Part shown: positions 57,199 to 60,100 of the stretch, one piece after another
Layout: the number at the start of each line of letters is the position of its first letter
Position numbering within the stretch: the stretch's first letter is position 1
The notes under the pieces: generated by a model
Told to the model about the DNA's origin: nothing
Database searches by the model: none
The model's input: only the letters and a program-made list of their open reading frames with translations
Made by a program: the position numbers and the translations under genes
Source of the DNA: Raillietiella orientalis
Taxonomy: Eukaryota
DNA: 64,000 nucleotides
Direction: 5' to 3'
NCBI GenBank assembly: GCA_036172245.1
Contig: JAYWIR010000003.1
Coordinates: 930,001-994,000 of the forward strand

Positions 57199-60100
57199 TC
57201 AAAACTGTTCACTGGGAGAGCTCACGCCGTTGGGGAACTTGAGGTTCTGGAGTCCTCGGAACCTGCAGCAGGACGACGGGCTTCTTATCCAGCTGCTGCC
57301 GCTGGAGCAGGGCGACGGAGTCGGGCGATGATATGGAATGGGCCGCTTGCGGGCGCTGCAAGAGTACATGTGGCATGTAATGCGACAGTTAAGACTCGGA
57401 TTCCGTGGTTGTTAGTGGCGTGTGACCAACCAGTTATTAAGAGAATGCATGTACTGATAAATATTGAAAAGTGAAGCCCGGTTATTTGCATGTGAAGAAG
57501 GTCTTTAAGGATAAAACAATACCACTCCATGAGAAGAAAAGAAAAACAACAAAAAAAAAAAAAAAGTGTTGCAATGCCAGGAAAAAAAAAAAAACACACA
57601 TGAAAATCAACTGAAAATGTACTAACCTTAAAAACAAGAAAAAGAGCTGATAACTCAAACGAAGAACTCTAACATCGTGGAAAACGTAAACGATAAACAT
57701 ACCAACAAAACGGGAAGAGCACGAAAACATAAAGGGTTAAGTGGAGGGTGGGTGGGTGGGTGGGTGGAGGAGGCATCTCGCCTGCACACTGCAGGCGGAA
57801 AACGTGATGGACTGCTTCTAAAATAGTACTGTTCCAAATGTCGCTAAGGCGAAATGAACAAACTGGACGTTGAGTGCGTCGACAATTTCGAAAATCAATG
57901 ATTTTTTGATGCTACCTGGTGATTCGACGTTTCTCCTTCCACGAGGGCGAGCCGGGGCGCCTTGGTAAGGAATCTGAGCGACCGCAAGAGGAACACGAGC
58001 TGCTCGGTCTGCTAGACCGTGTTCTGGCGGAGCTGGCTGACCAGCTCCTGGTGCCAGTCGAAGAGTCGTTCCTCATCCTGTCCTTGGACAAGCTCCGAGA
58101 CCTGCTTCTGCAACAACTTGAAAGACTTCGTGACAGGCTTCTTCTCCAGCTTCCGGAGCGACTGTTTGTCCTGTCCCTACTGCGTTTGTATGGATGCATT
58201 TTGTGGCTTGGAGAACCGCTGGCCTTTTTTTTGCGTACACGGGAAGTCCAACGTACAGAGTTACAGCTATGAGAACTGCGATAAGACGAACGTCCGGACA
58301 GGACGCTACTATGAGAGTAACAAGAGAAACCAGATACACTACTCCTACTCCTACTCCTACTCCTACTCCTACTACCACTACACGACGACACACTCCTGCT
58401 TTTGCAACTGCGGGACGACACACGCGAGGACAGGGATCTGAAAATCAGACCAAAATACCAATTACTCCGTTAGTTCTTTTAGTTACGCACTTGGAGGCGC
58501 TCCGTGAATAGCAACCGTAACGAGGACTCCTTCGGAAATTGTACTGACGTGGCAACTCCGGGGAAGAATTTATCAGAATGGGTGTGTCCTGACAGTGTTC
58601 GGAAGCATAGTTGTTCAAACAGAGTGTGTCGTGGTAAAGCTCGGGATGGCGATCTACGGGCGAGTAACTCAAACTAGAGGCGGAAGAGCGAGAACTGATG
58701 CTGAGTATAACTTCCGCTTCTTTCTCATCTTCCACAGCCTTTTCTTTCCTTGATGTTTTCGCTGCTTCAGAAAGGAACTCTTGTCCTGCAGCAGCCTTAT
58801 CACTGAAAGATAATTTCACTCGCTGATTCTCAAGGAGAGCTGAATCGCTTACAGCTTTATCTCATTCATTAAGTGAATACTTGAATCAATAATAGATATT
58901 CTAAGCAGAGTACTTACTCGTCGGTCTTGGCAACCACATCATGAATGGAAGAACAGCAAGCATTCTATAATTCAAAATTGAACTTGAAATGATTATAACT
59001 TAATGCGCAATCAAATACAAAAACAAGTAACACTATCATTTCCCTTAGTAATACAAGAAGACACGTGAGAGAGAGAGAGAGAGAGAGAGAGAGAGAGAGA
59101 GAGAGAGAGAGAGAGAGAGAGAGAGAGAGAGAGAGAGAGAGAGAGAGAGAGAGAGAGCGAGAGAGAGAGGAAATTCCCACAAAGTGCACGCTAGAAACAG
59201 CAGCATCCCGGCATAAACGCCAAGCTGATTCCCACAATCCTGAGGGAGATGCCAATTACAACAACAAAAAACAAAAACAACAACGAACCAACAACAACAT
59301 TCAGAGGGACTACTCGAAAGTGCACATCGACCGAAAAACAAAAAGGCAGTCAGCCCCCCGCGTAAGGACCGATTTGCTACCAAAAACAAAAAAACGAAAT
59401 CAACCGGTCACCCCCCTGAGGGTTTTTTGCCCCGAATTCGGCTTGATAGGGCAGCGAACTTACTGGCACTCGCCCTTGTCCTCACTACTTGAGGATTCCC
59501 TGGACACGCTGCTACAGTGCGGCACGTACGCGAACGTGACTACGGCTACCCCTCTCCCTGGGGGAAGTTCCCCGAATCGGCTCCTCCAGACGGGATCGAC
59601 ACAATGATGTGCCATGGAACGATGTGTTGTCAAAGTACGGCGTTTTCTTAGCACACCAATCACCTCTCATCCATGTGCGGTCACGGGAAACGGAAACGCT
59701 CTCGAAACCCCGAGGGACCCCCGGGCTGCAGAGCAAACGCGCCGCGGGACAGCAAAAGGAACACAACGCGAATGCCACGAGCGAATCGGGAAGAATGAAC
59801 AGACCGCGGTGCTTTTTAGGAACCTCCGCAAAAAGCCACGGGGAATGAAAATGCGGAGAGGAAGGAGGGGGAGGGGGGCACCGAACCGTCAGTGCCATAT
59901 CGAACACAATTCGCTCCGTGTGATTTCCGACTCCTCAGTCATTTTCAGCTGCCGTAATTCTTCACGGGGTTCACGCTGTGAAAAAAACACGAAACAAAAA
60001 CAAAACCCACAAAGGAGACCAAGGAAGGTACGTGAAGGCGGGTCCATGGGAGCGGACGTGAGCGGAAAAGGAAAGAAGAGGGAAAACCCTGTTCCGGGGT

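Follow-up and report, generated by a model that had tools for sequence, protein, structure and literature searches.

The minus strand at the far end of the 64,000-nt window (the whole stretch of DNA analysed) very probably carries the exons at the 3' end of an arthropod splicing-factor gene of the SRRM type (Srrm234-like), with an ordinary split eMIC domain. The gene adds a further member to a known family. In the direction of transcription, its features within the window are the following.

63949..63999, minus strand: candidate exon fragment running off the window end, upstream of the candidate 53-nt intron
63896..63948, minus strand: candidate 53-nt intron; boundaries set by eye, the frame being open also without its removal
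63775..63895, minus strand: K/S-rich upstream coding exon (...KKRKRSYSSSDNS...); open frame, GT/AG boundaries set by eye
58491..58847, minus strand: coding exon before the R/S-rich exon (...SISSRSSASS...RSASK); donor AA/gtgcgt at 58491/58490
58438..58490, minus strand: 53-nt mini-intron (gtgcgt...ctaac...ttttcag); its removal joins the flanking exons in frame
57916..58437, minus strand: R/S-rich exon of 522 nt, 174 codons, in frame directly upstream of the last exon
57356..57915, minus strand: phase-2 intron, GT..AG, exactly 560 nt, read from the sequence
57202..57355, minus strand: coding part of the last exon, comprising the C of the split serine codon, ARKRPIPYHRPTPSP and 36 more residues (...SSPSEQF)
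57059..57198, minus strand: 3' untranslated region as far as AATAAA (57064..57059)

The R/S-rich open frame (57912..58469, minus strand) ends in ...SLPRRPGSPSWKEKRRIT and is followed by the AG of a split serine codon (57917-57916) and the GT of a donor (57915-57914). The final 56 nt of this exon (57971..57916) correspond to the first half of the eMIC domain, SLPRRPGSPSWKEKRRIT plus the AG, and contain the W-K-E-K codons (57941..57930, minus strand) within ...SPSWKEKRRIT. The acceptor of the 560-nt intron reads ...tactcttgcag; the AG occupies 57357-57356, and the last exon opens with C at 57355. Joined across the intron, AG and C form a serine codon, which is followed by ARKRPIPYHRPTPSP; the stop codon occupies 57201..57199 (minus strand). 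When exons 58861..58491, 58437..57916 and 57355..57199 are joined, they form a single frame of 349 residues with a terminal stop only. The 53-nt intron at 58490..58438 is needed in this model because the frame reaches the R/S-rich exon open only after its removal. The 5' boundary of the exon preceding this intron is uncertain, as phase-compatible acceptors precede both 58847 and 58802.

On rereading, we found correct every coordinate that the initial annotation had given for the end of the R/S-rich exon at 57916, the 560-nt phase-2 intron and the restart at 57355. Its remark that the last exon had been overlooked by the list of open reading frames is plausible, given that this frame measures 70 residues from stop to stop and 56 from its only ATG, below a 60-residue cut-off.

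Based on strand, phase and composition, the exon at 63775..63895 probably belongs to the same SRRM-type gene; its donor (minus strand) is CAG/gtaaat, in phase 2. The introns of the gene inside the window measure 53 nt, 560 nt and approximately 5 kb. The 5' part of the gene, in which an N-terminal Cwf21 domain would define Srrm234, lies beyond position 64000 and hence outside the window. By its consensus, the AATAAA at 57064..57059 is a putative poly(A) signal. The gene shows two introns of exactly 53 nt, one required by the frame (58438..58490) and one candidate (63896..63948). A (GA)51 microsatellite is localised to the large intron (59067..59169), and further simple repeats occur at 63297..63374 and 63498..63538.

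Homology of the two half-cores

For the homology analysis, we built a profile from 46 distinct complete eMIC cores of 36 residues and used it to scan the full 64 kb in all six frames. The last-exon frame matched core-profile positions 21-36 at 29.8 bits, and the last 20 residues of the R/S-rich exon frame matched positions 1-20 at 23.5 bits. The scan gave no other such matches in the 64 kb, where the next best score was 8.8 bits; the best of 20 shuffled windows reached 10.3. These complementary halves share a strand, are separated by 560 nt with GT and AG at the borders, and are in compatible phase; they thus correspond to a split eMIC domain. With the 560-nt intron spliced out, the Arg/Ser-rich protein contains the nearly invariant core RRIT-S-ARK(R)P(I/V)PY at its C-terminal end. 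The spliced core scored 64.5 bits, compared with a leave-one-out range of 50.7-76.9 for the 46 cores (median 69; eight of the 46 lower), and the core of Sarcoptes scabiei, at 61.8 bits leave-one-out, lies below that of the window. The spliced core of the window ranks among the lower-scoring members of the family without falling outside its normal range. With both half-cores matching the profile and the spliced core within the family range, the initial identification as an eMIC domain (Pfam SRRM_C) holds.

The Pfam SRRM_C profile (PF15230) spans 67 positions of a domain that is here split by an intron, and it was applied to single exons. The open frame of the last exon scored 22.4 bits (E 2e-4, profile positions 55-67 of 67; gathering score 27) and the strict last exon alone 15 bits, and no match to SRRM_C was obtained with the R/S-rich exon alone. 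For comparison, two scorpion proteins score just 26.2 and 27.0 bits against this profile.

A word-index protein search with the 51-residue last exon returned six matches (E 1-9), all sharing ARKRPIPYHRPTPSP exactly. Five of the six carry SRRM_C, one of the matches is an SRRM4-like protein from the fig wasp Ceratosolen solmsi marchali (P0005), and two pass SRRM_C at 39.9 and 43.9 bits. The downstream half-core is thus identical over 15 residues to that of insect proteins passing SRRM_C at 40-44 bits. When the 40 residues that precede the junction served as query in the same type of search, 141 candidates came up, none at E <= 10. Neither query brought up a close relative with WKEK among the proteins searched, which is weak evidence of its absence. 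We also used a 39-position eMIC profile derived from the unaltered 39-residue parts of two insect-like eMIC proteins. Against 1.84 billion representative proteins it gave 67 matches at E <= 0.001, of which 25 were at E <= 1e-10. No eMIC chain was identified among the PDB sequences, and Rfam gave no match anywhere in the window.

The domain resembles the eMIC of invertebrate Srrm234 and of vertebrate SRRM3 and SRRM4 (PF15230) in its RRIT-S-ARKRPIPY core, in the preceding stretch of GSPS, aromatic, any and acidic residues, in its C-terminal place in an Arg/Ser-rich protein and in its short Ser-rich tail. It differs from them in carrying W for F/H and K for L/M before RRIT. The insect eMIC proteins (C. 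solmsi marchali P0005; P0002-P0006) share with the window the identical ARKRPIPYHRPTPSP and the PRRxGSPS...RRIT frame. In contrast, P0002-P0006 have F-L-D where the window has W-K-E, and they show no detectable similarity to it outside the domain. The eMIC protein of Centruroides vittatus likewise showed no similarity outside the domain (best E 0.18).

Conserved break after RRIT and content of the 560-nt intron

The position of the intron within the domain is shared with other species. Nine of 67 gene models lose their likeness to eMIC right after RRIT, and eight of these nine carry the arginine expected from AG/G. Four other models open with non-eMIC text directly before SARKRP, so that the intron between RRIT and SARKRP truncates 13 of the 67 models from the database. 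The window has the phase-2 serine-codon split between RRIT and ARKRP in common with the insect-type layout (AG/gt ... ag/C). These breaks at the same codon in the models of other species, arthropods among them (nine after RRIT and four before SARKRP, n=67), bear out the conserved split-exon structure that had been proposed.

Two of these models continue past the break in an informative manner. In Ixodes pacificus (P0057), RRIT is followed by R-A-P-D... and then by an RS-rich end; in Callosobruchus chinensis (P0069), it is followed by R-H-R and a stop. Neither can be read-through into the intron, since no codon whose first letter is the T of GT can encode the residue after the arginine. Based on the genetic code, this suggests that the tick and beetle models are spliced to non-eMIC alternative terminal exons, the one in the tick being RS-rich.

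In Drosophila Srrm234 (CG7971), one part of the eMIC comes from a shared exon and the other from a distal alternative last exon; a proximal non-eMIC terminal or poison exon lies between the two, and the arrangement is controlled by Elav/Fne (available text of PMC8797185). In that text, conservation of this layout is stated only within holometabolous insects. The window resembles the CG7971 3' end, as described there, in that the domain extends over the last two exons with a U-rich intron between them (17 overlapping UUUNUUU matches in the 560-nt intron). It is unlike CG7971 in having neither an identifiable proximal exon nor an identifiable intronic poly(A) signal. Within the 560-nt intron, neither AATAAA nor ATTAAA was found, nor any RS-rich frame. 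We weighed several acceptor-like sites within the intron as possible starts of alternative exons; none had support, and no proximal non-eMIC exon was identified. A non-eMIC product of this gene could arise by plain retention of the 560-nt intron, the protein then ending in ...RRITR.

The intron contains T13 and T15 runs at 57594 and 57565. All of its 17 overlapping TTTNTTT matches coincide with or adjoin three T-rich runs near the centre of the intron (57540..57600), and they recall the Elav-type UUUNUUU sites at the 3' end of Drosophila Srrm234. In the region of the eMIC-exon acceptor (57356..57420), TGC occurs 20 and 5 nt upstream and CTAAC 60 nt upstream; the last AG lies 41 nt before the exon, so that a stretch of 39 nt is free of AG, and the sequence ahead of the acceptor has a modest pyrimidine content (0.64). 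Qualitatively, and as a single site compared without statistics, this acceptor resembles the 3' splice-site features given for fly eMIC-dependent exons in the available text of PMC8797185.

Residues before RRIT and the C-terminal tail

For the analysis of the residues preceding RRIT, we tabulated the 65 proteins holding RRIT among the 70 examined (P0001-P0006, P0008-P0071); the cores of P0002, P0003, P0004, P0006 and P0008 are near-identical.

Position -4 before RRIT (n=65): F 53, H 10, Y 1, W 1; window W
Position -3 before RRIT (n=65): L 57, M 6, K 2; window K
Position -2 before RRIT (n=65): D 38, E 26, S 1; window E
Position -1 before RRIT (n=65): R 28, K 17, A 14, six others once each; window K

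The consensus given in the initial annotation, SPS(H/F)L(E/D)xRRITSARKRPIPY, agrees with these 65 sequences. The description there of the core motif as divergent is overstated. As a combination, WKEK is found in none of the 65 proteins, and W at position -4 (one of 65) and K at position -3 (two of 65) are rare, but E and K at positions -2 and -1 are ordinary among these proteins and the core score is within the family range. The tryptophan replaces one aromatic residue (F/H) with another and has a precedent in P0067 (WLDN). The only non-conservative change of the four is the lysine at position -3, which is occupied by L or M in 63 of the 65. Lysine is found at this position also in Sarcoptes scabiei (FKEK, P0052) and in P0059 (FKEG). 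The Sarcoptes protein passes SRRM_C at 42 bits, which indicates that the L/M position is not invariant in accepted members of the family.

This Sarcoptes protein (hypothetical protein QR98_0010640, KPM02648.1) shares with the window K-E-K before RRIT and a short non-RS tail. It differs in having F and not W, in a more diverged second half (ARKLPVPYKRN...) and in being annotated as 87 residues only. The scorpion (P0022), spider (P0023) and tick (P0057) proteins all carry FLDK, and K-E-K was seen only in the acariform mite among the named chelicerates (12 of the 30 looked-up records were named). The HLEA and FMEA groups are presumably vertebrate SRRM4 and SRRM3, respectively. Within the reading of an ordinary split eMIC, which we hold to be highly probable, W and K in place of F/H and L/M would represent lineage variation of a still-functional domain and not a re-engineered motif. 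Judging from the residues involved, lysine in place of a hydrophobic L or M may nonetheless reduce or alter activity.

The initial annotation also described the tail after the domain as short and Ser/Cys-rich in place of RS-rich. The tail following ...PY has 43 residues, a single RS/SR dipeptide and 7% Cys, and ends in ...SSPSEQF. It is accordingly short, Ser/Cys-rich and RS-poor, but it is not unusual: among 56 relatives the tails have a median of 44.5 residues, 27 do not exceed 42 residues, and in 14 there are no more than two RS/SR dipeptides. Similar Cys-containing tails are present in Glossina (12% Cys) and Drosophila sechellia (7% Cys). The tail of the window is therefore typical for arthropods.

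A terminal phenylalanine is shared by 10 of the 56 relatives, compared with 1.7% F among tail residues, and the window (57202..57222, minus strand) also ends in it. Nine of the 10 F-ending tails have an S/P-containing stretch before this residue, such as ...SPSMIF in Glossina, ...SPSMVAF in D. sechellia and ...ESPGF in the FMEA group; the F-ending records include P0016, P0020, P0039, P0040, P0042, P0043, P0045 and P0046. The terminal phenylalanine may represent a conserved C-terminal motif beyond the eMIC core.

We consider very unlikely the proposal that the W-K change alters the function of the eMIC and that this variant evolved together with miniature introns and weak pyrimidine tracts in this lineage. 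The strong conservation of the L/M position and its occupation by lysine in the window are in its favour. Sarcoptes scabiei, the only named species with the same residue there, has a compact genome with short introns; the SRRM gene of the window has a 53-nt intron, and the pyrimidine content at its eMIC acceptor is modest. However, two or three lysine-bearing sequences of uncertain kinship provide no independent replication of such co-evolution, and the gene also has introns of 560 nt and approximately 5 kb. Furthermore, the changes from F to W and from D to E are conservative, and the remaining core is canonical with an overall score inside the family range. We also regard as distinctly unlikely the joint reading in which the aromatic-lysine pair (W-K here, F-K in Sarcoptes and P0059) is a lineage-specific variant with changed partner binding and the acceptor of the eMIC exon is itself an eMIC target, so that the factor would reinforce its own active isoform.

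It would be most improbable, in our assessment, that the 57916/57355 junction is unused or that the eMIC exon is a decaying relic. Read-through past the 57916 donor gives AGG TAG, placing an in-frame stop directly after the donor, and this donor, gtagca, departs from the usual consensus gtaagt at +4 and +5; the protein would then end in ...RRITR. Against this, the last exon keeps an intact frame of 51 codons with a canonical 15-residue half-core and ends in F, as do 10 of the 56 relatives, and AATAAA follows 135 nt past its stop. A stop or non-eMIC text after RRIT and R is also seen in models of other species that nevertheless have the second half. We thus retain the ordinary split eMIC, with splicing from 57916 to 57355, as the preferred reading.

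Expected role of the domain and surrounding features

The eMIC domain was defined in a 2019 Nat Ecol Evol paper (as cited in PMC8797185), and it is described as necessary and sufficient for microexon inclusion and as binding SF1 and U2AF1/2 (available text of PMC8797185, Sci Adv 2022). Use of the junction would rebuild the core GSPS-W-K-E-K-RRIT-S-ARKRPIPYHRPTPSP at the end of the Arg/Ser-rich protein, and by analogy with these proteins the product would be expected to be active and restricted to neural tissue. Based on homology, the domain is predicted to recruit SF1 and U2AF, which act early in 3' splice-site recognition, and its contacts with SF1 and U2AF1/2 would be made where weak 3' splice sites adjoin UGC motifs. 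This would promote the inclusion of very short neuronal exons. With one half of the domain encoded by a last exon of its own, 3'-end processing may decide whether a complete eMIC is made, a step that we propose by analogy only.

The gene model includes a short terminal exon of a kind often missed by gene predictors and has little import beyond annotation. It does add a data point that extends the split-eMIC layout beyond holometabolous insects, given that the best RBM19 matches of the window are chelicerate, although this placement is tentative, and that the model of Ixodes pacificus breaks at the same codon. The tabulated variation indicates which residues before RRIT tolerate change and could guide mutational studies of a domain without a solved structure.

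The RBM19 (multiple-RRM) orthologue lies on the plus strand, with exons at 48191..49752 that are 42-48% identical to arthropod proteins. For the exon at 48191..48958, the best named matches are from ticks, a spider and scorpions (42-47% identity), and insects show 44-45%. In a tree of 23 selected matches with loosely extracted regions, the window is on a long branch (1.55 compared with a median of 0.39) and its position is not fixed.

The window also contains a single-exon gene of 473 codons encoding BTB and C2H2 zinc-finger domains (36459..37877, plus strand), whose nearest feature clusters are the arthropod bric-a-brac, fruitless and tramtrack types. The region at 1..26000 is very G+C-rich: 2-kb windows range from 58-69%, apart from drops to 52-53% at 10-14 kb and at 16-18 kb, in contrast to 31-43% at 30-50 kb, and this block has long open frames in all six frames.
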